A DNA stretch of 64,000 bases from Coraliomargarita algicola (GCF_033878955.1 NZ_CP138858.1:2556803-2620802), one strand, 5' to 3'. Shown: positions 7,328-59,732, numbered from the stretch's first letter. Translations and numbers: made by a program. Notes: generated from the letters alone by a model not told the origin.

Positions 7328-7716
7328 AGTCAGGCCGCCTCGCAGTGTATTTATGGATACAAACGAAAAATAAAAATCATCGCACGCCAAACTTCCGAGT
7401 GGATAGACCCCAGAGCCACTAAGAACAATTAGGTCGTCCTCGCGAAAGGTTTCCAAATACCCTGCGTATTTATTTAATATACTATCTCAAAGTTCCAGCA
7501 CCTACAGCCCATCGACCGAATAATCGCGAAACAAATCCTCTGAGCGCTCCTTGGTGATATCGGTGGCATCTGTACAAATCTGCGTCCATCTGCGTCCATC
7601 TGCGTCCATCTGCGGTTATAATGTAGCGCGGGGCTTCGGAAACTATGTCAGCCATTACGATTCATATAATTTTGGTTCACTGGTAGTAGATCCAAAGATT
7701 AAACAGAGCATGGCTA

Positions 7717-8391
7717 TCAAAGTGTTCGAGTAAAACGACATTTAGGATACTGACTACACCCAAGAAACTGATTGCCTGCATTCGCTCCTCTTCGAGCCGT
7801 GCGAGTCACCAAAGGAGCTCCGCAGTTAGGACAGGTCGTATTTGATTTATGACGAGCCTTCAGGGAATTCATGTGTGTGCTGCGTGTCAGAGTTGGTGTC
7901 GCCTTTAACTCTTGAAGACGTCGATACACTGAAGACACCTCATCAGAAGAAAGCATTAATTCTCGATAGCTGCCTATATGTCTCGCAAGCCGTTCATTAA
8001 CAACATTTGGCGGCATCGAAGTTTTAAATACAGCATCCCCTATAAAAAAGATAATCGAATGAAAATAATTCTCACTAAGCCCCAAACACTCCGATAGGCA
8101 TTTTATGTGTCGATAATTTTGCCTAAGAGGATTCTGAAAAGAATGCTTCTTACCATATAGCACTTGAGTCCAGCGAGCTTGCTTGGGATCACCAAAAATC
8201 CAGCCATTATAATTCTTGGTTTCCACCACAAATATACCATAGCAAGAAACCAATATGTGATCTATTTGAGTTGTACCGCTACGCGTTGGGACGATCAAAT
8301 CATGAATACGCAAATAAACCCTGCTATCCAAGAAAGCCCACATCCCAACTGAAGCCATTTTTTCACCAAACCAACCTTTAAGGACCCCCAT
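7717..8391 (-). CDS. NERD-domain protein with C-terminal topoisomerase-type C4 zinc ribbon
   Basis: NERD core QIDHILVSCYGIFVVETKNYNGWIFG. C-terminal CPNCGAPLV...CSQYPKC. The locus is AT-rich relative to its surroundings. Confidence 0.7.
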   Translation of the reverse strand: MGVLKGWFGEKMASVGMWAFLDSRVYLRIHDLIVPTRSGTTQIDHILVSCYGIFVVETKNYNGWIFGDPKQARWTQVLYGKKHSFQNPLRQNYRHIKCLSECLGLSENYFHSIIFFIGDAVFKTSMPPNVVNERLARHIGSYRELMLSSDEVSSVYRRLQELKATPTLTRSTHMNSLKARHKSNTTCPNCGAPLVTRTARRGANAGNQFLGCSQYPKCRFTRTL

Positions 8392-8728
8392 AACTAACCT
8401 CCATAAACAAATAATTCAGTATTATGATAATATGTGAGGAAAATAACAAAACCAATCAAGACAAACCAACCACAAACATAGTCACAAAAACGATAGAATC
8501 CCCTACGTGGCCGATCCAACGGCGGTCGTCACCCCTGCGTCGCTTTCAGCTATGCATTGAGCTGCCCCCGACAAAAAGAATCCGCGACTCAACTAGCAGT
8601 GCACTGGGCTTTCAGGTCTCAGCATAGCGGTGGCTTGGATTCACGTCCATTCACGTCCATTCACGGTTAAGTATTGTAGTTACCTGATGGATACCAGTTC
8701 CAGAAAAGGATCTGTGTTCCTCGCTGCT

Positions 8729-9598
8729 TCAATCCACCATGTTCACGCGGTATTCTGCGAGTGGATGCTTGCTTTGCCATTGTGGGAGGCGTGGGCTGGG
8801 ACCTTCGATGCGAACCAGGGGCGGTGTGCGCTCGGCGAGGCCGTTGATCTTTGCCCAGAGGGTGGTGTCGCCCCAGTATTGTGGGGGCGTGTCGGCCTGC
8901 GCGACGGCGATGAAAATTTCGGCTGGACTGTGATGGCCGGCGCGGAGGGCAGCGAGGGTGTGGTATTCGAGTCGTCCGAACTCGCTGTCGGCGTAGCTGT
9001 GTTCTTGCAGCCAGCGCGTGACTGCCGCGGGAATCCATTGGATGGGGGCCTGTGATTGAGCGGCTAGCGCTTGGAATGCGGCGAGGTCTTGCTCGGCGAA
9101 GGCGCGGTCGACTTGGCAGGCAAATTCAAATTGTTCGGGGCTGACGGGCTGTCGTGTGGGGTAGCTGGCGGCCAGCTCGCTGGGCTGTAGTTGGCCGAGG
9201 CCATTGTAGCGTTCGATTCGGGGATGGGCGTCGATGCAAATGAGCTCGACTTGCGAGCGCTTCAAATGTTGTAGGCAGGTGAGAATGTGGCACAGCATCG
9301 ATTGATCGAATAGGCAGGCATCGAACCACAGCACAATCTGTGTGTCGGCGAGCATTTCGCTCAGTTTGCGGTATTGGTCCTGGAGTGTTTCCAGCACGTA
9401 TGCCTGGTCCAGGCCGCCGCCCGTGCTTTGCTCGAGGAAAACGGCGCGTGCTCGTAAAGTCGCCTCACTCGGCCAGCCCGGATTGCGGGGGCCGTCGTAG
9501 AGAATGTCGTGCCAGACAAAAACCTCGCCCGGCAGTTGTGCTTGTGTGAGTAACTGACCGGCGCAGTCGCCGCTGGTGATGTGAAGGGTTGCTGCCAT
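8729..9598 (-). CDS. DUF1835/DUF3658 domain protein
   Basis: N-terminus LHITSGDCAGQLL is typical of DUF1835. The C-terminal half resembles DUF3658. Confidence 0.5.
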   Translation of the reverse strand: MAATLHITSGDCAGQLLTQAQLPGEVFVWHDILYDGPRNPGWPSEATLRARAVFLEQSTGGGLDQAYVLETLQDQYRKLSEMLADTQIVLWFDACLFDQSMLCHILTCLQHLKRSQVELICIDAHPRIERYNGLGQLQPSELAASYPTRQPVSPEQFEFACQVDRAFAEQDLAAFQALAAQSQAPIQWIPAAVTRWLQEHSYADSEFGRLEYHTLAALRAGHHSPAEIFIAVAQADTPPQYWGDTTLWAKINGLAERTPPLVRIEGPSPRLPQWQSKHPLAEYRVNMVD

Positions 9599-47597: not shown

Positions 47598-47713
47598 CAG
47601 CAGCACTTAGTGCACGCTGCGGATGGGATCATCCGCCCTCCCAAGGACGCATTTTCGACTGTGAATAGCTTCTGCTTGCATTGAAGATAAGGGGGCGCAA
47701 TCTCCCCCTTCCC

Positions 47714-50700
47714 ATGCCAGAGAAAGATACTGAATTCGTCCACCTTCACGTCCATACAGATCACAGTCTGCTGGATGGTTGTAGCCGGACGGATCGACTG
47801 TGCGCACGTGCCGCCGAACTGGGGATGAAGGCCCTCTCGATCACCGACCACGGTGTGCTCTATGGTCTGACCAGTTTTTTTAAACAAGCAGAAAAGCATG
47901 GGATCAAGCCGCTGCTAGGCTGCGAAGTCTACCTCGTCTACGAAGATCAACTGGCCACCGTCAACGAAGAGCGCGCCAAACAAAAGTCCCGCCACATGGG
48001 GCTACTCGCACGCAATTTCACGGGTTACCAGAATCTGTGCAAAATCGTATCCAAGGCGCATACGCAAGGCTTCTACCGCAACCCGCGCACCGACCTTAAA
48101 ACTCTGGCCGAACACAGCGAAGGCCTGATCGGCTTTTCCGGCTGCTTGGCTGCCGTCATTCCGCAGTATCTGCTCAAGGGCGAGTTCGAAGAAGCCCGCG
48201 CGGCGGCCGCCAAGTTTATCGATATTTTCGGCAAGGACTACTTCATCATCGAGATCATGGATCACGGGATCGAAGAACAGCGTCGCATCATACCGGGCCT
48301 ACTCAAAATTGCGGCTGAATTTGACCTCAAAGTCGTCGCCACCAATGATGTACACTACGTCAATAAAACCGATTGGGAGCCGCACGACTCACTGCTGTGT
48401 ATCCAAACCGGAGCGAAGATACGCGACGAGAAACGTATGCGCTATGATGCGCAACAGTTCTACCTAAAGTCGCGTGAAGAGATGGACCTCGCCTTCAAAG
48501 AAGTGCCTGAGTCCATCACCAACACTTCCGCCATCGCAGAGATGTGCGAGGTCAAACTCCCCTTCGGCGAAGACCACTATCCTGTTTACGAACGCCCCGC
48601 CGAAATCGAAAGTGGTAACGACCATGTCAATTTTGAGCGCGTGCTGGACATCTACGTCGCCAAGAAAAACGAAATTTTGGTGCGCGACGGCAAAGAGCCG
48701 ATCGAACTCTCGGAGGCCGAACGAATTAAGCACAAAAGCAACGGACTCTACCTGTTCGAGCTTTGTAAAATCGGCCTAAAGGAACGCTACGGCACCGACT
48801 ACGATGCCTGCCGGGCGGACTGGGAAAATGCCTCCGCCCAAGACAAGCGCTATTGCGAACAACTCGAATACGAGCTCGCCATTATCACCGGCACGGGCTT
48901 CGTAGATTACTTCCTGATCGTTTGGGACTTCATTGCCTGGGCACGCAAACAAGGTATCCCCGTCGGCCCTGGCCGTGGTTCGGGTGCAGGTTGTATTGTC
49001 GCCTACGTGCTGAAGATTACAGACATCGATCCTCTCAGTTTCGGCCTGCTATTCGAGCGGATGCTTAACTTGGAACGTGTCTCGCCACCTGACTTCGACG
49101 TCGACTTCTGTATGCGGCGACGCGATGAAGTGGTCAATTATGTGCGCGATAAATACGGCAAAGACCGCGTGGCCAATATCATTACCTTCGGCACCTTTGG
49201 AGCCAAAATGATCATTCGCGACTTGGCACGCGTCAACGATCTGGAGTTTGCCGAGGCCAACAAACTGGCCAAGATGATCCCCGACGAGCTGAACATTACG
49301 CTCGACGACTCTGTCAAGAAATCGCCGGAACTCGCGGCCGAGGTCAACCGAAACCCCGTCGCCCGATCCATCCTCGACCAAGGCCGCGTGATCGAGGGGA
49401 TGATTCGCAACACAGGTAAACATGCCTGTGGTGTGATCATCGCTGACCAAGACATTACCAATCTAATCCCCGTCACCCTGCAGGAAGGTGATTTGACCAC
49501 GCAGTATCCCAAGGGCCCCTCGGAAGACCTGGGCCTGCTCAAGATGGACTTCTTGGGCCTCAAGACATTGACGGTGATCTCCGATGCAGAGAAGAATGTA
49601 CGCATGACGCGTGACATGCCCGACTTCAACGTCGAGAAAGTCTCACTCAAAGACAAAGAAACCTTCGACCTGCTCAACTCCGGTCGCACCACCGCCGTCT
49701 TCCAATTGGAATCCGGTGGCATGCAGCAGCTCTGTCGTCAGATCGGCCTGAGCTCCTTCGAGGAGATTATCGCGTTGATCGCGCTCTATCGTCCTGGGCC
49801 GATGCAGTTCATACCGCAGTTCATCGAAGGTAAAAAAGATCCCTCTACGGTGCAGATTCCCCACCCTTTGCTAAAAGAGCTAGTGCAGGAAACTTACGGG
49901 GTATTGGTTTACCAAGAACAGGTGATGCAATCTGCACAGATCATCGCAGGCTATACACTAGGCGGTGCGGATATTTTGCGCCGCGCGATGGGTAAGAAGA
50001 TTAAGTCGGTGATGGATGAGCAAAAGGGCGTCTTCATCAAAGGCGCCAAGGAAACCAACAACATCGACCGTAAAACCGCCGAATCGATCTTTGCCTTGCT
50101 GGAGAAATTTGCCCAATACGGTTTTAATAAGTCGCACTCCGCAGCTTATGCGATGCTCAGTTATCGCACTGCGTATTTAAAAGCCAACTACCCGGTGGAG
50201 TTCATGGCGGCCGTGCTCACCTCCGAGCAAGGCAATGCGGACAAGCTATCCAATTTCCTCGCAGAGTGTAACGCGATGAACGTGCCGGTGCTCAGCCCGG
50301 ATGTAAATGAGTCCGGAGCGGACTTCACCCCAGTCATTGAAAAGGGCGAAGGTTGTATTCGTTTCGGTATGGCATCCATCAAAGGCGTCGGCGAAGGTGC
50401 CGCCAAAGTGATCATCGCCGAACGCGACGCCAATGGCACTTACAAAGATTTCACCGACTTCATCGTTCGCAACTCCGACAAAGCCGTCAATCGACGGGTG
50501 ATGGAAGCGCTGATCAAAACCGGTGGCTTCGACTCGCTGGGCGAGGACCGTGCCAGCCTACTCGATGGGCTCGACTCCGAACTCGCCGAAGCAGAAAGCG
50601 CCCGCAAAGATCGCGAAGCGGGCCAAAGCAGCCTCTTCGACATGCTCGGCGATGATAGTGGCGTGGCCGACGAAGACAAACCTGGCAGCAATCGACGCAC

Positions 50701-51412
50701 TGTCGAGGAGATGGGCATGACCGAAAAGCTCCGCTACGAAAAAGAACTGCTGGGCTTCTACATCTCCGGGCACCCCATGGATGCTTATGCCGCTCTCGAC
50801 GATGCCATCGACAGCTTTCGCCACCCCGACGACCTGTTTAACTTTGACGACCGCAGCAGCTTCCGTCTGTGCGGAATCGTCAGCAATTTACAGATCAAAT
50901 ACACGCGCAAAGACAGCAAGCAAATGGCAGTCTTCAATCTGGCCACTCGCAACCATAGCTTCGAGATGATCATGTTTCCCGATCCATATGCCAAGGAGGG
51001 GCACCGCTTGGAGGATGGAAAACTCGCATTGATCCATGGCATTATCGGTCGCCGCAATGGAGAGATGAGCCTGGCCGCGCATAACATCTTCGATCTAGAG
51101 GTCTCGATTCCGAAACTCATTCAACGCATTAATTTCATCCTCTACCCGAATAGCAAAGCCGTCGAATTCATCAACCTACTACGCGACACCATCGACGAGC
51201 AATACGGAGAGACGCGTGTGAATATCAGCTTCCTGGTCGAAGACCAAATCCTGGAGGCCCAAACGGCGCAATCACTCACCTTCACAATCACCGGCACTAA
51301 TTTCAAATCACTACGCCGCCACCCCGCCCTCGCCGGGGTGCGAATCGAAGCCATCGACTTGAAACCGATTGATGATCGCAAGCCGTGGGAAAAGCGAGGG
51401 AAGAAATTCTAG
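47714..51412 (+). CDS. dnaE: DNA polymerase III alpha subunit
   Basis: PHP domain ([13 protein letters not shown]) and a full-length DnaE. Confidence 0.95.
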
Positions 51413-52575
51413 GACTGTGCCATACGAATCAATTTCGTCTCCGCATCATAGAAATAATCCGGGATCTCTTCAGACAAAGTCAGACGAATCGCCTCTTCAA
51501 TCACTGCTAGCGGTGCCACGAACCACTCTCGCGGCGTATGTCGTTTGCCTACGTCATCAAAAACATCGATTTCTAGGCAAGCTTTTGCAAAAAACTTATG
51601 CAGCAACAGTTCCAGCTTCTGCGGATTGAGGTTATAGCACTCAAAGCTAGTAACAATTCTAACTGGTGCCATCAAATATGTAGGATCATCTGCAGCGTTT
51701 TTAATGCGTTCTTCCACCGAGCCACGGCTGTAGCCGATTTTGTATAAATCCTTATTTTGCGCAATCTTCGGATTCTGGCTTCGAGACCTTAACACATAGA
51801 TAGTTCCAGTTTGCTGATCGGTATCCGTCAGGCCATCGAGTTCTTTGACCAAGCGATCTTCATGCTCAGTAATGCGACGCCCATCTTTATACAGTTCACG
51901 CGCCAGCGATCGTAGCAACATCGCAGACTCTGTCCCATTTTCAAAGATGCAGCGCATCCGCGCGTTGACCTTACCACCTTTAAGCTCTTTTTCACCGACT
52001 GCTGCGACGTAGGCCATGATGCCTTTGAGCACAAAAAACTGCCCAGTTTCGATCTGTTGCTCATTGGCAAAAGGTAACATCTGCCGCTTACCGCTTCTCA
52101 AGTCTTGATGACAATTTTTAAACAGTGGCTCAAAGCGATCAAAGTCTTCGCATGCTTCACGCTGCGCGATGTAGTCGGGCATCTCAATCTGACTTCGGAC
52201 ATGCTTCAGGTTGAAGATGTCTACCTCGGGCGCAGGATCATCTAAAAGCCCAAGGTCGTCATCGTTATAAATATCTTCCATCGATGCGGGTGGTTCCAGT
52301 GTCGCGAGCAGACCAAATTCATCGAAGTTCTGTAGCAGCTGCAACTTTGCTTCGTCTTTGCGCAGTGCACTGAGGCTCATCGCCAATTGCGCTTCTTGCA
52401 TATTTGATGGATTCACTTCGGGCTCACGCGCATGTAAGCGATAAAACTCGGTGATCTGGTGAAATTTATCGATCAAGCGCTCTTCTGCACTTTGCGCGGT
52501 CGACTGCACTGGCTTCACATCCAGCAAGCCGAGATCATCATCCGCGATCAATTGTTTTAGTTGCTCGGCATCCAT
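51409..52575 (-). CDS. T5orf172 / GIY-YIG-like domain protein (YeeC-like)
   Basis: C-terminal TIYVLRSR...[16 protein letters not shown]...LHKFF...EWF resembles T5orf172. Size is close to the B. subtilis YeeC-type protein. Confidence 0.55.
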
Positions 52576-52577
52576 GC

Positions 52578-54497
52578 TTAAAGTCCCTGCTGCTTGCGTT
52601 GCTGCTTAATAAACACTAATGCCTCGGCCATCCGCTTTTCCTGTCCATCATAGGCAGTCAAGGAAGGTGGACGCCCATGCGTCTTCACAAAGGCTTTGAT
52701 TTTAGGCCACAACAGTAGCGCTTCCGCTTCGGTCATTTGCAAACGAGTGGTCGCGATGCAGTCCATGATCGCCTTCAGCACGGGGGGCGTCACCTGCTTG
52801 GAAAGGATCTCAAAGGCTTTCTGGAAGGGGTTGATGGAATCGATCAAGTCGATGTTGAGCTCATCGATATTGATAAACTGGTTCGCCATGCGGATGATAC
52901 GGCGATCGCCGCCATCTTCCATCACCGCGCCCACCATGACAGAGTCCACCACAACATGCTGACGCAATTCCTCACATTCACGCTCATCGAGGTCGGGGTA
53001 TTTCTTTTGAATGATCTTTGGAATCAAGACCTTATTGATCACCTCGGGGTCGACATCGCCCGGCATGGCTTTTTGCATCGAACGATCTTGTAAAATCGTC
53101 GCCTTTAAATCGTTGAGGTCGGATTCGATGATGTCCTTCACGCGTTGTGAGCTGGGCTCCTTAAATCCTCGGATCTTCAGTTCCCCAGGCGCGTTGACCT
53201 CATCCTCTGAAACACGGGTTTTAAACTTAAAATGGGGCGCTAGCACTTGCTCCATCAACAAGGAACATGTGATCGCCTTGAGCATATTATTCACCGCAAA
53301 GCTGACCTCGTCGTCACCTGCATCGGGCTGTGCGATCAGATTAGTAAACTGCGCGTGCGTCTTGTTCGTGCTATCACGAGTGCAGCGCCCGATGATCTGC
53401 ACCACTTCCGTCAAAGAGCCGCGATAGCCGACCGTCAGAGCATGCTCGCAAAAGGGCCAGTCAAAGCCTTCTTTCGCCATGCCCAGCGCGATAATTAAGT
53501 CCATCTCTTCAGGCTGACGGATCTTGCGCAGATAATTCACCACTCGGTCGCGTTGCTCTTTAACGTCCCAGACCAAGTCGGCTACCTTGAGCTGCTTTTG
53601 ATCGCCATGCCGTTCGACCGTCATAATGCCCGTTTCTGGATCAGTATAAATGACACGCCCGATCATGCCGAGAATATGCCCGACCTCACCATGCTTGTCC
53701 TTGGTCGATTCGCCTGCGTTCGGACTTGGAATATGGAGAATCGTTTTCTTATCCGTATCCAGCACCTCCGCAATCGCCGAAGTATAACGGCCCTGATAAA
53801 AGTGATACCCGATCCCCAGCGATTTAAGGTGCTGGTAGCCGTTGAGCTGCTCATAATAATTATAGGTGACATGCCGGAACAGCGCTTCGTCCTCAGGTGC
53901 GAGCACGGGCACGCGATCTCCACGGAAGTAAGAGCCAGTCATCGCCACAATATGCGCACTGGACTTCGCCAGGACATCCCGCAGCACTTCTCCTAGCTGG
54001 TTGTCACTATCCGCAGAAACATGGTGAAACTCGTCAATCGCCAGTAGCACATTGTCAAAGGCGGACGTCTCGACTTCTTTAAATGCGTAGCGAAGGGTCG
54101 CGTGTGTGCACAGCAGCACAGAATCATAGCTAGTTAAAAACTCCCGAAACTGCCGCACTTTACCCGCATCCCCATCCGTCGCGCACAAGTCACAATGCGG
54201 CTCCAAGCTCCAATCATGCGGGAAGCCATAAGCCGACAAACGAGTCGACGCAAAGGACGCCGCGATCGATCGCTCTGGCACCGCCACGATGGTTTTACGC
54301 ACGCCCTGATGCTGCATCTTATCCAAGGCCAAAAACATCAAGGCCCGCGATTTACCCGAAGCAGGCGGCGCTTTGACTAACAAGTATTGCGCATCACGCT
54401 GGGCATACACCCGCGCCTGCATTTCGCGCATGCCGAAGGCATCGGTATTGGTGCTCTGGCCTGTCTGGCCGTAAGTGACTTCTACGAGGTTAGGCAT
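52578..54497 (-). CDS. SF2 DExH-box helicase (YeeB-like)
   Basis: Walker A APPASGKS and DExH motif AIDEFHHV. About 640 aa. Confidence 0.7.
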   Translation of the reverse strand: MPNLVEVTYGQTGQSTNTDAFGMREMQARVYAQRDAQYLLVKAPPASGKSRALMFLALDKMQHQGVRKTIVAVPERSIAASFASTRLSAYGFPHDWSLEPHCDLCATDGDAGKVRQFREFLTSYDSVLLCTHATLRYAFKEVETSAFDNVLLAIDEFHHVSADSDNQLGEVLRDVLAKSSAHIVAMTGSYFRGDRVPVLAPEDEALFRHVTYNYYEQLNGYQHLKSLGIGYHFYQGRYTSAIAEVLDTDKKTILHIPSPNAGESTKDKHGEVGHILGMIGRVIYTDPETGIMTVERHGDQKQLKVADLVWDVKEQRDRVVNYLRKIRQPEEMDLIIALGMAKEGFDWPFCEHALTVGYRGSLTEVVQIIGRCTRDSTNKTHAQFTNLIAQPDAGDDEVSFAVNNMLKAITCSLLMEQVLAPHFKFKTRVSEDEVNAPGELKIRGFKEPSSQRVKDIIESDLNDLKATILQDRSMQKAMPGDVDPEVINKVLIPKIIQKKYPDLDERECEELRQHVVVDSVMVGAVMEDGGDRRIIRMANQFINIDELNIDLIDSINPFQKAFEILSKQVTPPVLKAIMDCIATTRLQMTEAEALLLWPKIKAFVKTHGRPPSLTAYDGQEKRMAEALVFIKQQRKQQGL

Positions 54498-54503
54498 TAT
54501 AAA

Positions 54504-55340
54504 CTAAAAAAGTAATGTTTGAGCATCATAAGGTGTGGGAACGACACTGATGATCACATAAGGATTGGGTGCACGTTTGTTGTGGTGCTGCAAAGTTGTG
54601 CCTAGCACGAGGGTGAGATCGTATTTTCCGCTTTGAACGAAAGTGTCCCAATACTTTTCGCGCACCTTCTGAACAGCAACCGCTTCATCTCCATCCGCAT
54701 TTTTTAGACAGTTCCAATAGAGTGCACCGATTTCCCAATCCTCAATCATCAGCTTCGGCGTTTTGCCACTGACATCTTTGAATTTATAGGAGAATTTATA
54801 AGGCAATTTTTTGACCACCTTGAACTCTTCTTCAATCGTCGCCTCGTCTTTAAACAGATCAAATTGCTGCTTCTGCGCTTCTAACAACTCAAGCTTCTTG
54901 GGATTCCACTCACGATCCGTTTTTTCGACGACAAAATCCGTCATCTCTTGGGGTTTATAATGTGCCAATGAGGCGAGATTCCCATGCGCTTGTTCGATTA
55001 ATTCCGCGATGTTCGTCTCTAGTGCGACTTGATTGTGGAAGGCTTCTTTCCGAGCCAACCATTTATCCGCAGTCGGGATTGGTCCGCCGATTAACTTCAG
55101 ACTATCCGGATTTTTGATCTTATAACTTTCTGGGCGACCATCAGTGGTCGATTTCTCGATATCCGCTTCGACCCACTGATACTTCTGATACTGACTGCCG
55201 TCCTGTAGCTGGCGAAAGCACACTGGATAAATACGTCGCCATTCCCCGCTTTCATTCACTCCCGCGGTACAGACTAATTCAGCATACTTGCTCGACAGCG
55301 TGGGGTAGGTTTTTACAGCTATCAGAATTCGCTCGATCAT
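54504..55340 (-). CDS. hypothetical protein (no recognisable motifs)
   Basis: ORF sits between the helicase (7-bp gap) and the Panacea-DUF488 gene (4-bp overlap). Confidence 0.5.
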   Translation of the reverse strand: MIERILIAVKTYPTLSSKYAELVCTAGVNESGEWRRIYPVCFRQLQDGSQYQKYQWVEADIEKSTTDGRPESYKIKNPDSLKLIGGPIPTADKWLARKEAFHNQVALETNIAELIEQAHGNLASLAHYKPQEMTDFVVEKTDREWNPKKLELLEAQKQQFDLFKDEATIEEEFKVVKKLPYKFSYKFKDVSGKTPKLMIEDWEIGALYWNCLKNADGDEAVAVQKVREKYWDTFVQSGKYDLTLVLGTTLQHHNKRAPNPYVIISVVPTPYDAQTLLF

Positions 55341-56251
55341 AGATGCGTTACTTTGTAACCAATATCGGCCTCAAGTAAATCGCTAATGCAATGACGGTGA
55401 CAACAATGAGGCTCCGCTTCGAAACAAGTCAACGCGACACGTTTGTTTTGCTCAATCACCTCTTGTAAACGTTCCAAGCCTTCACGGCGGGTCGGAAGTT
55501 CTTCTCGATAGCCCGCAAAGAGACGCTCGTAATCGGCCATCGAGTTAAGCTCCTGCCGCTTATCAGACTCAATCCCTAACTCTGGAAAATGGACGTATTC
55601 GATCCCAAGCTTCGGTAAGACCTTGCTTAGCATTCTCGAAGAAAACCCAAATTTACGACTCAGTGGATTACGTCGCACATCACAAAGCACGGACACTCGA
55701 TTGCGAATGAGTTTATTCAAATATTCCTCAAAATGAATACCTTCGTAACCAATGGTAAAAACGATCACTTCTTCTGGTTTCACTTCAGGTAATGAGGCCG
55801 CCACCGCATTTAACTCCTCCTGGCTGAGCAGACGTTCCTTCATTTCGCTGTGGATTGCATAGAAAGGGAAGCGACGATAGGTCGTGTGCACCAAGTCCTC
55901 TCCGCGTTCTGGATGACGATAAAGCCAGCGCTTAACTGCACGCCGTTCTTCGTTCTGACGCGCCCAACTCTCGCGGCTAATATCTTCAACTAATGAGAAC
56001 TCCTTCTCACCTACTGAAATCCAGCCCCGTTTGTCCATCAGGTCAAGGTCATCGGCGGCCAGAAAAGAGTAGCAACCATAGCGAAAAGGCACGAAAGCAT
56101 AATGCTCAGCCTCTTTCTCTGCATGATAAAGAAAGAGGAGTTTTTGCAGATCCATTTTAGACACCGCCCCATCCAACGCCTCCAAAAAGAATAGAAGAAG
56201 TCGTTGGCGCTTATAGGTCGGCGCCTTTGGTTTTACTGAACGAGTGATCAT
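55337..56251 (-). CDS. Panacea (DUF4065/SocA-like)-DUF488 fusion protein
   Basis: N-terminus MDLQKLLFLYHAE...FVPFRYGCYS resembles the GepA/Panacea antitoxin domain. The C-terminal ~150 aa resemble DUF488 (YeaO-like). Confidence 0.5.
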   Translation of the reverse strand: MITRSVKPKAPTYKRQRLLLFFLEALDGAVSKMDLQKLLFLYHAEKEAEHYAFVPFRYGCYSFLAADDLDLMDKRGWISVGEKEFSLVEDISRESWARQNEERRAVKRWLYRHPERGEDLVHTTYRRFPFYAIHSEMKERLLSQEELNAVAASLPEVKPEEVIVFTIGYEGIHFEEYLNKLIRNRVSVLCDVRRNPLSRKFGFSSRMLSKVLPKLGIEYVHFPELGIESDKRQELNSMADYERLFAGYREELPTRREGLERLQEVIEQNKRVALTCFEAEPHCCHRHCISDLLEADIGYKVTHL

Positions 56252-56316
56252 TATTTTAAGATTGAATCAATGTATGCTTTGAAGCAAAGCTGAAATTTCC
56301 TCATAAAGAGACTCGA

Positions 56317-57066
56317 TCATTTCACGCTCAAATCCTTCGTTTTACGATCAATTTTAATATAACGGTCAAGGTATGGAATTATTTCAGGATGCTGGAACGC
56401 TGGTGCATAAGATGATCTATAATACCCTTCTTCTGATTGAACTCTTCTCCGACTTGAAGTTGAATAATATAAATTTTTATAAATCAGCGCAGGTCGAGAC
56501 AAGTGCCCCTTCTTTTCTAGGATCGCTTCAAGCAGACCACCTACAATTTTATAAGCAAGTGGATTGCTTACCGCGTTTTTAATCGACTCAAGCTCTAGAG
56601 AGAGCGAATTAACAATTTTATTCTCTGTTTCTATTTCATAATCTAAAACTCGGCAATATCGCCTAATAAACCAAACAGTCTCATCAAGTTTCCACACTTC
56701 ATACGGATCTGTATGGTGGGACCTTTCAAAATATCGAGATGGAGTGTTCTTCTGTAATCTCTTGATGAATTCGTAAACATTGTCGTTCAATTCCAACTCA
56801 AATTTCAGTTCCTTTGTTTTAAGAAGGCACTGATCAATACTATGCTGAACCTTCTTTGCCTCGACACGATTGAAGAGCAAAATTGCCTTTAAGTATTTTT
56901 CGATACATTGCTGCGCTAAGGCTAAATATTGAGGTATTAAGCCATTGTGATAGCAAACTCTCGCTGCAATATAATCTTGATCAGCGATTTCACGGAACAC
57001 TCTAACCGCATAAGTATTAATGGCACATTTAATTGAGTGAGGTTCACTAGTTATGTCGTCACTCAT
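56317..57066 (-). CDS. HEPN-like protein (Rx4-6H motif)
   Basis: RYFERSHH fits the HEPN Rx4-6H motif. The gene is strongly AT-rich relative to its flanks and overlaps the MTase stop by 4 bp. Confidence 0.45.
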   Translation of the reverse strand: MSDDITSEPHSIKCAINTYAVRVFREIADQDYIAARVCYHNGLIPQYLALAQQCIEKYLKAILLFNRVEAKKVQHSIDQCLLKTKELKFELELNDNVYEFIKRLQKNTPSRYFERSHHTDPYEVWKLDETVWFIRRYCRVLDYEIETENKIVNSLSLELESIKNAVSNPLAYKIVGGLLEAILEKKGHLSRPALIYKNLYYSTSSRRRVQSEEGYYRSSYAPAFQHPEIIPYLDRYIKIDRKTKDLSVK

Positions 57067-59732
57067 TTCTTCCCCTCCTGTTCTTTTGCGATCATGGCTT
57101 CGTAGCGTTTGAAGAGATGTTCGAGGCGTTCTTCGTCGGAGGTGAAAGGTGCTTTTTGGTAGAGGCGGTCGACGGTGAGATCGAGTGCTTGGTGCGCGGC
57201 ACGCAGGCCGGCGGGCATTTTGTCCGGATCATAGAGCTGAGCCATCGTCTTTTCCGGATGGTTCTCGCGCTCTTGCAAGACCTGCATCACCTGCGTCGTT
57301 AGTTCCTGCTTTTGCGTAGCGCTTAAGTTGGGGACGGGGAAGGTGTTATAGCAGAGCCCTGCCGAATAACGATAGTCGGTTTTTAAACGTCCCGCCACTG
57401 CGCGCACCCAAGTCATGTGCATGCGAGAGGTGAGTAGGCCGAAGATAGTGGGATCGGCGTCGTAGATTGCGTATGCGAGATTAGATATGACGGTATCTTT
57501 ATCCAGAAAACCAGATGGCACATATTCGCGTCGTTCTGAACTCACTTCTGGAATGATGACCGATTCAGATTTCTGATACCGAATTTCGCTAAATGCATGT
57601 GCCCTCTCTGCATCCTCTCGGGTCGTGGCTTTCTGGCTAGCTAATCGCATTTCTCGAACTTGATTAATACGATTAAATACTGGCTTAGTCTCAAGTGCTT
57701 GTTGCAGGTCTTGATTTTCGATCCAAAGACAATAGCGAACACTGCCTCTAATAAATTCAACTGAGCCAATGTATTTCTTTAATAACGAAGCAGCCGATGG
57801 GTATTCTTCAATCAGGCTCCGGCGCTCTTCTACGGACAAGATCAAATTACCACCATCAACAGGTTTACTACCATAACTGATCGGGGGCAGGTTTGAGATG
57901 GACCGTGAACGCTTAAATACGATTACATCTGCCCCAGTTGATAGATAAGGATTGATCACTTTTACGTGACTAGCCAAGCCTCCACGATAGAGAATTGCGG
58001 CCTCATTTGATTTAACCCGGAGCCCAACAATCGCACAGGTGACGCCTGCATTCCCTTTCGCGTTATTTGTCCATTTGAATGACTGATGCGCAAATCCAAT
58101 TTCTAAGCCACGCTTTAAAACATGAGGCCACAGCAATGCGACCTGTTCGCCCTGACAAATCGAATTAGTAGTCACAAATGCAGCTTTTATGTTGGAATTC
58201 GTGATAAACTTTCCCGCCTTAAAAAACCAACAAGCAATGAAGTCTAAATTCTTGTAGCCCTTTATTCCTGTAAAAACATACGCCATATCGGATTTGTGCA
58301 AAGCAGTCTGCATGCTGGCTCCCAGATACGGCGGATTGCCCAAGATATAAATCTCATCGCCGTCTTCCTTCGGGCAGACGCTTTCCCAATCGATGCGGCA
58401 GGCGTTGGCGCATTTAATATTGGCTCCATCGCGGAGCGGGAGGTTGTCGGGAGCTTGGCCGCAGACACGTTTAGACTCCAAGTTCATCTGATGCTCGGTC
58501 AACCAAAGCGCCAGCACGGCGGTCTCGGCGGCGAAGTCGGCAATTTCGATGCCGTAGAACTGGCTGACTTGTAGGCCTGAAAGTGGGAGTTCGCCGGTTG
58601 TCCGCTGCAACTCTTGAAAGATGTCCATCTCCAAGCGACGCAGCTCCTTGTAGGCGATGATCAGGAAATTACCCGAACCACAGGCAGGGTCGAAGATTTT
58701 CACCTTAGCGATGCGTTCCAGCAGACGATGGAGTGCTTGTGATTGGCCGCGCCGGAGGCTGCAGGCCTTTTCAAAGGCCTCACGAAAATCGTTTAAAAAG
58801 AGCGGCTCGATCACCTTCATGATGTTGGTCACCGAGGTGTAGTGCTGCCCTAGATTGTGCCTTTCTTCGGGATCGATCACCGCTTGGAACATCGAACCGA
58901 AAATGTCGGGGTTGATGTCGGCCCAGCTAAGCTCACCCGCTTCCAGCATCATGCGGCGCGCCTTCATCGAGAACTCAGGAATCGGAAAATGCTCACGAAA
59001 GAGTCCACCATTCACATAGGGCAGGCTCTGCAAGTGTTGCGGTAGGCCCGCGCGCGATTTACGGTCGAGAATATCGAACAGTCGCACAAAAAAGTCGTGC
59101 AAGTCGCTACCGTCGGCCGCGGTGTGTGAGGCAATGGCGTTACTGATCGCATTCTCTTCCGGAAAGATGCCGGTGTCCTCCGCATAAAAGCAGAACAGCA
59201 AGCGCGCCAGAAAGACATTCATGGCATGGCTATTGGCTTCCACGAACTCCGGATTGTGAGAGCGGATCGCATCAAATAGCTTGGCCATGCGCTCAGCAGC
59301 CTTGATGTCGGCTGGGTTCTCGTTGGAAAGTTTGGTCTTCTCCATCCCTGCTAGCGGCAGGAAGAAGTCGAAATGGCTCGGCAAGTCCGCCAATTTACAG
59401 TCCAGCGTGTCGTCCGTCTTACGATCCAGCGCCACCAGATGTTGAAAATCAGTGACCAACAAAAAGCGCGGATCATTGGACAGCATGGCTTTGTCCGACT
59501 TCAACGTATCCAGAGTCGCAAACAAATCGCCCTCGGTCGGCTTAAAGTAGAGCTTCTTCTTAAACAACAAGTCGCCCTCCAGCTTAGCCAAATTCATCGT
59601 GCCCGACTTCAGACGTGTGACATTCGCCTGCGGCGTGCCATAGGCTTCAAGAAATGCATAGATAAACTCGCTTTGCTCGGGGAGTTTCCGAACTAGTGAT
59701 GTAATGTTGTCAGCGACCTCAAAGTAATGCAT
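57063..59732 (-). CDS. MmeI/YeeA-family N6-adenine DNA methyltransferase (Type IIL/IIG-like, 889 aa)
   Basis: Motif I FDPACGSGNFL and motif IV GNPPY. MmeI-like N-terminal region and a C-terminal TRD-like region. Confidence 0.75.
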   Translation of the reverse strand: MHYFEVADNITSLVRKLPEQSEFIYAFLEAYGTPQANVTRLKSGTMNLAKLEGDLLFKKKLYFKPTEGDLFATLDTLKSDKAMLSNDPRFLLVTDFQHLVALDRKTDDTLDCKLADLPSHFDFFLPLAGMEKTKLSNENPADIKAAERMAKLFDAIRSHNPEFVEANSHAMNVFLARLLFCFYAEDTGIFPEENAISNAIASHTAADGSDLHDFFVRLFDILDRKSRAGLPQHLQSLPYVNGGLFREHFPIPEFSMKARRMMLEAGELSWADINPDIFGSMFQAVIDPEERHNLGQHYTSVTNIMKVIEPLFLNDFREAFEKACSLRRGQSQALHRLLERIAKVKIFDPACGSGNFLIIAYKELRRLEMDIFQELQRTTGELPLSGLQVSQFYGIEIADFAAETAVLALWLTEHQMNLESKRVCGQAPDNLPLRDGANIKCANACRIDWESVCPKEDGDEIYILGNPPYLGASMQTALHKSDMAYVFTGIKGYKNLDFIACWFFKAGKFITNSNIKAAFVTTNSICQGEQVALLWPHVLKRGLEIGFAHQSFKWTNNAKGNAGVTCAIVGLRVKSNEAAILYRGGLASHVKVINPYLSTGADVIVFKRSRSISNLPPISYGSKPVDGGNLILSVEERRSLIEEYPSAASLLKKYIGSVEFIRGSVRYCLWIENQDLQQALETKPVFNRINQVREMRLASQKATTREDAERAHAFSEIRYQKSESVIIPEVSSERREYVPSGFLDKDTVISNLAYAIYDADPTIFGLLTSRMHMTWVRAVAGRLKTDYRYSAGLCYNTFPVPNLSATQKQELTTQVMQVLQERENHPEKTMAQLYDPDKMPAGLRAAHQALDLTVDRLYQKAPFTSDEERLEHLFKRYEAMIAKEQEGKK

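Follow-up and report, generated by a model that had tools for sequence, protein, structure and literature searches.

A HEPN gene and a DUF488 fusion gene are probably chance neighbours within a DnmA-YeeB-YeeC-type operon of Coraliomargarita algicola

We analysed a 64,000-nucleotide stretch of the Coraliomargarita algicola genome (GCF_033878955.1, NZ_CP138858.1:2556803-2620802; hereafter, the window), focusing on two adjacent minus-strand genes. One encodes a 249-amino-acid (aa) HEPN-domain protein (56317-57066) and the other a 304-aa protein (55337-56251) in which an N-terminal domain is fused to a DUF488 domain; both open reading frames lie exactly where a first-pass annotation of the sequence had placed them. 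That annotation proposed the two as a toxin-antitoxin-like pair. Judged by their distribution across genomes, they appear instead to be independent cassettes that are neighbours in this genome by chance. The fusion has its conserved partner immediately downstream, in a minus-strand gene for a 278-aa protein (54504-55340) that lies outside the interval 55337-57066 considered in the first pass. Fusion and partner match the two components of a catalogued defence candidate, PDC-M19, and are called M19A and M19B below.

The separation of the HEPN gene from the fusion was assessed in two sets of loci. We searched 80 genome loci encoding M19A relatives (39-73% identity, from many phyla) with the window proteins, and 87 loci encoding HEPN relatives for the fusion and for M19B. 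None of the 80 M19A loci encoded a HEPN homologue, and neither the M19A fusion nor M19B was present in any of the 87 HEPN loci. Two loci of the same operon type as the window were particularly informative. The first, L082, encodes the methyltransferase (68% identity), the HEPN protein (56%), the helicase (83%) and the T5orf172 protein (71%), and lacks both M19A and M19B. The second, L002, encodes the methyltransferase (73%), M19A (72%), M19B (74%), the helicase (80%) and the T5orf172 protein (68%); its HEPN slot (7386-9134) is occupied instead by genes for a 427-aa coiled-coil/transmembrane protein and a DUF2513 protein. The 427-aa gene overlaps the methyltransferase stop codon by 4 nt, as the HEPN gene does in the window, and the position just after the methylase seems to be one at which effector genes are exchanged. 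Because these two loci each carry one cassette without the other, and because no co-occurrence was found across the 80 and 87 loci, we regard the HEPN gene and the fusion as independent.

The pairing suggested in the first pass, in which the HEPN protein would act as a toxic RNase with the Panacea-like/DUF488 fusion downstream as its antitoxin, could draw on the adjacency of the two genes (same strand, 65 bp apart), on the Rx5H motif of the HEPN protein and on the antitoxin-type fold of the M19A N-terminal domain, but is extremely improbable given the nil co-occurrence, the occurrence of each gene without the other in the same operon type, the near-obligate partner that M19A has in M19B, and the closest HEPN relatives, which track the methyltransferase and not M19A. 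A DUF488 gene was seen near a HEPN-family gene at a single locus (L142, 8558-8986), about 0.9 kb away and on the opposite strand; it has neither the N-terminal domain nor M19B beside it, and we take it as a coincidence.

We hold the partnership between M19A and M19B to be conserved with high confidence. An M19B homologue lies directly downstream of the M19A relative in 74 of the 80 loci, and the six loci without one include a contig end and a pseudogene. In the other direction, M19A or a DUF488 gene lies directly upstream of M19B in ten of 11 viral contigs, which were themselves found with M19B. The families are matched in size (6584 hits for M19A and 6821 for M19B), and both have PHROG matches. 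In the window, the two genes are co-oriented, the last 4 nt of M19A are shared with the start of M19B, and both proteins give full-length matches to the corresponding PADLOC models: PDC-M19A with an E-value of 2.5e-100 (aa 13-303 of 304) and PDC-M19B with an E-value of 6.8e-100 (aa 3-277 of 278). The candidate originates from Payne et al. (bioRxiv 10.1101/2024.01.29.577857), who mined genes embedded in BREX, DISARM, type I restriction-modification (R-M) and Hma systems, found six of nine tested embedded cassettes to be protective, and published a list of "145 untested phage defence candidates"; in their supplement, PDC-M19 appears as cassette CAS_00089 (FAM_02799>>FAM_02993). The window pair agrees with the way in which these candidates were defined, being embedded in an R-M-type system. 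It differs in its host, DnmA-YeeB-YeeC, which is not among the systems mined, and PDC-M19 itself is catalogued as a candidate only, without a domain interpretation in the main text of that study. Our literature searches for PDC-M19 returned nothing in main texts.

The domain composition of the pair could be read in some detail. The C-terminal part of M19A (aa 161-304 plus stop, 55337-55771) is a DUF488 domain, as the first-pass annotation had recognised: Pfam PF04343 matches aa 175-293 over its whole profile with an E-value of 4.2e-27 (95.6 bits, against a gathering cut-off of 22.2). Its conserved motifs are TIGYEG, CDVRxNPxSRKFGF, LGI and ALTCFE...CHRHC, and Pfam labels the matching subfamily "Active DUF488-N3 subclade". 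Stand-alone DUF488 proteins are widespread, including in phages. Literature searches for COG5483, PF04343 and DUF488-N3 returned nothing, and the papers that mention DUF488 contain no functional data. A four-cysteine metal site considered for the domain was dropped, as neither C190 nor C288 is conserved in a DUF488 protein of a Gordonia phage. M19B combines an N-terminal OB fold (about aa 1-90) with an alpha/beta domain. It is extremely conserved, with many invariant polar residues; its fold matches were OB folds only, resembling those of single-stranded DNA (ssDNA) binders, and a search of its profile against PDB sequences found nothing.

The N-terminal domain of M19A (aa 1-160, 55772-56251) contains a winged helix and includes DLQKLLFLYHAE...FVPFRYGCYS (aa 34-62), which the first-pass annotation had likened to the Panacea antitoxin domain. 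This idea is supported at the level of fold class and fails at the level of family membership. At E<=10, Pfam PF13274 (Panacea) matched neither the window domain nor any of 28 N-terminal domains of the family, so that of the Pfam matches expected in the first pass those to HEPN and DUF488 were obtained and that to Panacea was not. PF13274 was likewise missing from the precomputed annotations of the 120 best M19A homologues, and a regular-expression search of about 1.4 Mb of fetched loci found no genuine Panacea proteins. The closest relationship found was to DarG. The NCBIfam DarG model matches aa 24-94 weakly (against DarG 181-251, E-value 1e-3), and when the profile of the 28 N-terminal domains was compared with the whole PDB, DarG (7YK3) was the sole above-noise match (E-value 0.025), aligning LQKLLFLY...FVPYxFGCYSF with IQKLMYF...FTPGRYGPYSE. 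This best match is to the DarG C-terminal domain, which binds and inhibits DarT. Foldseek against viral models returned a "SocA-like Panacea domain" protein with a probability of 0.90 and a weak E-value (0.15). DUF4065 (Panacea) proteins are homologous to the C-terminal antitoxin domain of DarG (2026 paper, PMC13621843), and by fold similarity the M19A domain falls in this Panacea/DarG C-terminal-domain class. With PanA proteins it shares the layout (a KLxKLL... helix, a small beta-hairpin with a conserved Gly, and surrounding helices) and a conserved two-gene operon, and its FVPxxxG[CSGP][YF]S motif matches FTPGRYGPYS of DarG and the GPV region of Panacea. It differs from PanA proteins in lacking PF13274, and to our knowledge PanA proteins have not been described as fused to DUF488.

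PDC-M19 is repeatedly embedded in R-M loci. Neighbour clustering revealed a recurrent four-gene operon, in at least 22 of the 80 loci and in one viral contig, in which M19A and M19B lie between a type III-like Mod protein (N6_N4_Mtase, about 740 aa) and a Res protein (ResIII, about 900 aa). The gaps between the genes were about 5 to 35 nt in the examples checked, and Mod and Res were 55-84% identical to one representative across loci. Examples are L036 (7860-14407), L004, L017, L022, L025, L027, L044, L048, L169 and others. Elsewhere, the pair follows a PLD-SNF2 helicase and an Eco57I-type methylase (L052, L056), follows a type I HsdR and an AAA_13 (PrrC/RloC-type) ATPase (L078), or adjoins an HsdM-like N6 methylase (L009, L013). 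Overall, an R-M methylase or helicase was near M19A in at least 38 of the 80 loci, a lower bound obtained with a few representative query proteins. This embedding agrees with the origin of the candidate list in the study of Payne et al.

A distantly related pair occurs in temperate Gordonia phages, for example in phage Nymphadora (L168, 4334-5631). Its gp42 is a DUF488-only protein of 150 aa (35% identity, E-value 7e-21) and its gp43 is M19B-like (29% identity, E-value 2e-25); gp42 converges on gp43, and the two genes adjoin the immunity repressor and integrase of this temperate phage. The link between DUF488 and M19B is thus old and independent of the N-terminal domain. The record annotates gp42 as "HipA toxin?", and a location beside the repressor and integrase is typical of prophage-encoded defence genes. 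Separately, we observed a DUF4326 protein following an M19B-like gene that has no DUF488 partner (L176, 6861-7217), and another following the closest HEPN relative (L081, 1161-1553). The C-terminal CxC...CH motif of DUF4326 lines up with CFE...CHR of DUF488, but hhalign comparison of M19A with the DUF4326 proteins of these two loci was not significant, and only the CxC/E...CH motif aligned.

In its close clade, the HEPN gene (minus strand) accompanies an upstream DNA methylase. Its product matches PF05168 over aa 22-117 (E-value 8.5e-11; 42.5 bits, gathering cut-off 22) and carries RYFERSHH at aa 111-118, giving R111-x5-H117, so the first-pass assignment of a HEPN domain with an Rx4-6H motif was correct. 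The motif histidine is not conserved family-wide: among 120 aligned family members the position holds His in 7, Tyr in 83 and Phe in 20, while no variation is seen at R111, Y112 and H75 or in a block of N-terminal residues. The histidine is kept in the window protein and in its two close methyltransferase-linked relatives (P0122, P0123); across the family, few members outside the methylase-linked clade have it. In the closest contexts, namely the window, L081 (69% identity) and L082-L084 (56%), the HEPN clade lies directly 3' of an MmeI-like methyltransferase. At L081 neither YeeB nor YeeC follows, and DUF4326 and Abi_2 genes come after the HEPN gene. Distant relatives (33-46% identity, in 80 metagenome loci) have no adjoining methyltransferase or helicase, and neighbour clustering found no recurrent partner for them. 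One such homologue, in Marinobacter (L085, 6319-8747), directly follows a gene for a fused ABC-ATPase/DUF4435 (OLD/PARIS-like) protein, in surroundings with transposases and a HigB-like toxin gene next to a helix-turn-helix gene. The window HEPN protein matched no PADLOC model, the operon contained no minimal nucleotidyltransferase of HEPN-MNT pairs by Pfam, NCBIfam or PADLOC, and the profile of the HEPN family found nothing among PDB sequences.

The HEPN gene is AT-rich: its GC content is 37.3% (33.6% at third codon positions), compared with 50.6% in the methyltransferase gene, 52.9% in the helicase gene, 47.4% in M19A and 45.8% in M19B. The first-pass annotation had read this as a sign of separate acquisition. 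The gene is indeed AT-rich and occupies a variable slot; its homologues at two other loci likewise have a lower GC content than the genes around them (43% against 49-52% at L082, and 41% against 53-57% at L081). Low GC is therefore a trait of this HEPN clade wherever it is located, not only of this genome, and is no proof of recent arrival here.

At least 16 HEPN clades are linked to R-M systems, and a PrrC-like logic has been proposed in which R-M proteins restrain an RNase that is freed once the R-M system is neutralised (Anantharaman et al. 2013, PMC3710099). HEC-08, an embedded single-gene HEPN defence, has been validated and depends on the motif histidine (Payne et al., bioRxiv 10.1101/2024.01.29.577857). 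The window gene resembles PrrC/EcoprrI, the R-M-linked HEPN genes and HEC-08 in being nested between modification and restriction genes and in the presence of Rx4-6H in its clade. It differs from them in that it has no ABC ATPase domain, being of the classic PF05168 type with an uncharacterised C-terminal half of 130 aa, and in that the motif histidine is not conserved in its wider family. With that caveat, we interpret the HEPN gene, which is coupled to the methylase in translation, as adding a PrrC-like RNase to the R-M system.

The system that hosts both cassettes is, by its sequence, of the DnmA(YeeA)-YeeB-YeeC family, which bears out the earlier placement of the genes inside a methyltransferase/helicase system. 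Together with them it makes up an operon of six genes on the minus strand (59732 to 51409). The first gene encodes an 889-aa MmeI-family DNA methyltransferase of the DnmA/YeeA type (57063-59732), which matches all five MmeI Pfam domains (MmeI_Mtase, E-value 4e-104) and scores 1034 bits with the PADLOC model REase_MTase_IIG. Its alignment to MmeI (PDB 5HR4) begins only at aa 87, and we take it to lack equivalents of MmeI D70, E80 and K82. The late start of the alignment fits a subgroup of MmeI homologues with a divergent first ~100 aa, no PD-ExK motif and no endonuclease activity, which "invariably" adjoin the DEAD helicase YeeB and the GIY-YIG-type YeeC (Morgan et al. 2009, PMC2731913). The HEPN gene follows, its start overlapping the methyltransferase stop by 4 nt, and is separated from M19A by an AT-rich spacer of 65 bp (56252-56316, 31% GC), in which we found no minus-strand consensus promoter or terminator; promoter and terminator scans of the operon gave nothing informative. 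After M19B and a 6-nt gap comes the YeeB-like SF2 DEAD/ResIII helicase (639 aa, minus strand, 52578-54497), in which Pfam recognises DEAD, ResIII and Helicase_C and which shares 80-83% identity with its counterparts at L002 and L082. The last gene encodes the YeeC-like protein (388 aa, minus strand, 51409-52575), with a C-terminal T5orf172/MUG113 (GIY-YIG-type) domain at aa 257-365 (PF13455, E-value 4.5e-14; PF10544, E-value 5e-11) and T5orf172 orthologues in the same operon position at L002 and L082. The B. subtilis counterparts of the three host proteins are of similar size, at about 879, 599 and 382 aa.

The window thus holds all three components of such a system, namely an MmeI homologue whose first ~90 aa diverge, together with a DEAD helicase and a T5orf172/GIY-YIG protein, but three genes (HEPN, M19A and M19B) are inserted between methylase and helicase, which are adjacent in the canonical system. 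The dnmA-yeeB-yeeC gene order is conserved (Fernandez et al. 2023, PMC9973331). In the same source, B. subtilis DnmA-YeeB-YeeC gave no protection against the phages tested, and homologues from Vibrio crassostreae are cited as protective. Outside the operon, dnaE lies on one side and PEP-CTERM and queE-like genes on the other. The YeeC-like stop overlaps the end of the convergent dnaE (47681-51412) by 4 nt (51409-51412), so that the island abuts this essential gene without intergenic space. A tRNA scan of the whole window found none, and no integrase was among the ten profile-scanned proteins between 47681 and 62731.

Considering how PDC-M19 might act, a DarG-C-terminal-domain-like N-terminal domain, a probable enzyme and an OB-fold partner make a DarTG-like module the most economical reading. 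DarG combines an enzyme that reverses the product of the toxin with a DarT-binding domain at its C-terminus, which reportedly mimics ssDNA (Deep et al. 2023, as cited in PMC13621843). In M19A, similarly, a domain of that fold is joined to another that is probably an enzyme, and the OB fold of M19B is of the ssDNA-binder type, DarT being a toxin that acts on ssDNA. There are differences from DarTG: Pfam, NCBIfam and PADLOC matched neither a macrodomain nor the DarT ADP-ribosyltransferase fold, the domain order within M19A is reversed (binder, then enzyme), as is the gene order (putative antitoxin first), and the sequence link to DarG is marginal. Taken together, two independent cassettes between methylase and helicase, with PDC-M19 a DarTG-like module and the HEPN gene an R-M add-on, is a picture to which we give an even chance.

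Within the DarTG-like reading, the assignment of M19B as effector and M19A as antitoxin is tentative, and we place it somewhat below an even chance. M19B, with its OB fold and highly conserved alpha/beta domain, would be a nucleic-acid-directed effector. M19A would be an antitoxin with two modes of action, its N-terminal domain binding and blocking M19B and its DUF488 domain acting as a hydrolase that counteracts the product of M19B, undoing or preventing damage. M19B would be set free when a phage infects or when the R-M system around it fails, and PDC-M19, co-transcribed with R-M systems, would form a second layer of defence. Phages are said to use orphan antitoxin-like enzymes against DarTG, and the stand-alone phage DUF488 proteins would be their parallel. 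A more specific version, in which the N-terminal domain plugs the OB-fold groove of M19B as an ssDNA mimic, M19B is an unrecognised effector and DUF488 a new "eraser" hydrolase, is unlikely.

The alternative that survives best reverses the polarity according to a CapRel logic: DUF488 would be the toxic effector, the N-terminal domain its autoinhibitor or sensor, and M19B would trigger the release as an adaptor or as a sensor of nucleic acids with an OB fold. The "Active" label of the Pfam subclade, the DUF488 proteins in other PADLOC candidates (PDC-M45B and PDC-M45C) and the resemblance of the M19B OB fold to ssDNA binders, not enzymes, would all fit. Yet DUF488 is widespread as a domain on its own, in phages too, which would be unusual for a partnerless toxin, the pair in Gordonia phages has no N-terminal domain at all, and the conservation and invariant polar residues of M19B suggest more than a sensor. 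We consider this polarity possible, if on balance doubtful.

Less probable, and in our judgement quite unlikely, is that M19A and M19B are not an autonomous module but accessory subunits of helicase-dependent restriction, for instance controlling the Res/YeeB motor on ssDNA or limiting self-restriction. The tight Mod-M19A-M19B-Res operons with their well-conserved Mod and Res proteins would suit such a role, as would the same position between modification and restriction genes in two unrelated R-M architectures. However, 42 of the 80 loci have no R-M gene nearby that was recognised with the representative queries, operons of the host type function as complete units when the pair is absent (L082, and the B. 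subtilis and Vibrio systems of PMC9973331), and the related phage pair lies in an immunity region without an R-M system. Finally, that the cassettes are passengers without a role in defence (in DNA repair, for example) or selfish addiction modules stabilising the island would accord with the lack of a known function for DUF488 and with the failure of the B. subtilis system to protect against phages, but is very unlikely given how strongly and repeatedly R-M operons, and also the immunity region of a prophage, turn up as the setting, given the PHROG matches of both families, and given that most of the comparable embedded cassettes examined by Payne et al. proved protective.

The arrangement, which the first-pass annotation had taken to be undescribed, is only partly so, as the region is an instance of catalogued kinds: the fusion and its partner are PDC-M19, HEPN genes in R-M operons are known (PMC3710099), and so is the host system (PMC2731913, PMC9973331). 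As the adjacency of the HEPN gene and the fusion is probably a matter of chance, it is not worth pursuing as a pair, and the interest of the locus rests on the unexplained biology of DUF488 and M19B. Our analysis provides a first domain-level reading of PDC-M19, a defence candidate that is widespread (each of its two proteins has about 6,500 relatives), and places it between methylase and motor/nuclease genes in at least three R-M architectures. DUF488 is very common and without known function, and its place in PDC-M19 suggests a concrete hypothesis that can be tested. If the eraser reading were true, it would give DUF488 its first function, and the stand-alone DUF488 proteins of phages would be orphan antitoxins against M19B-type toxins.

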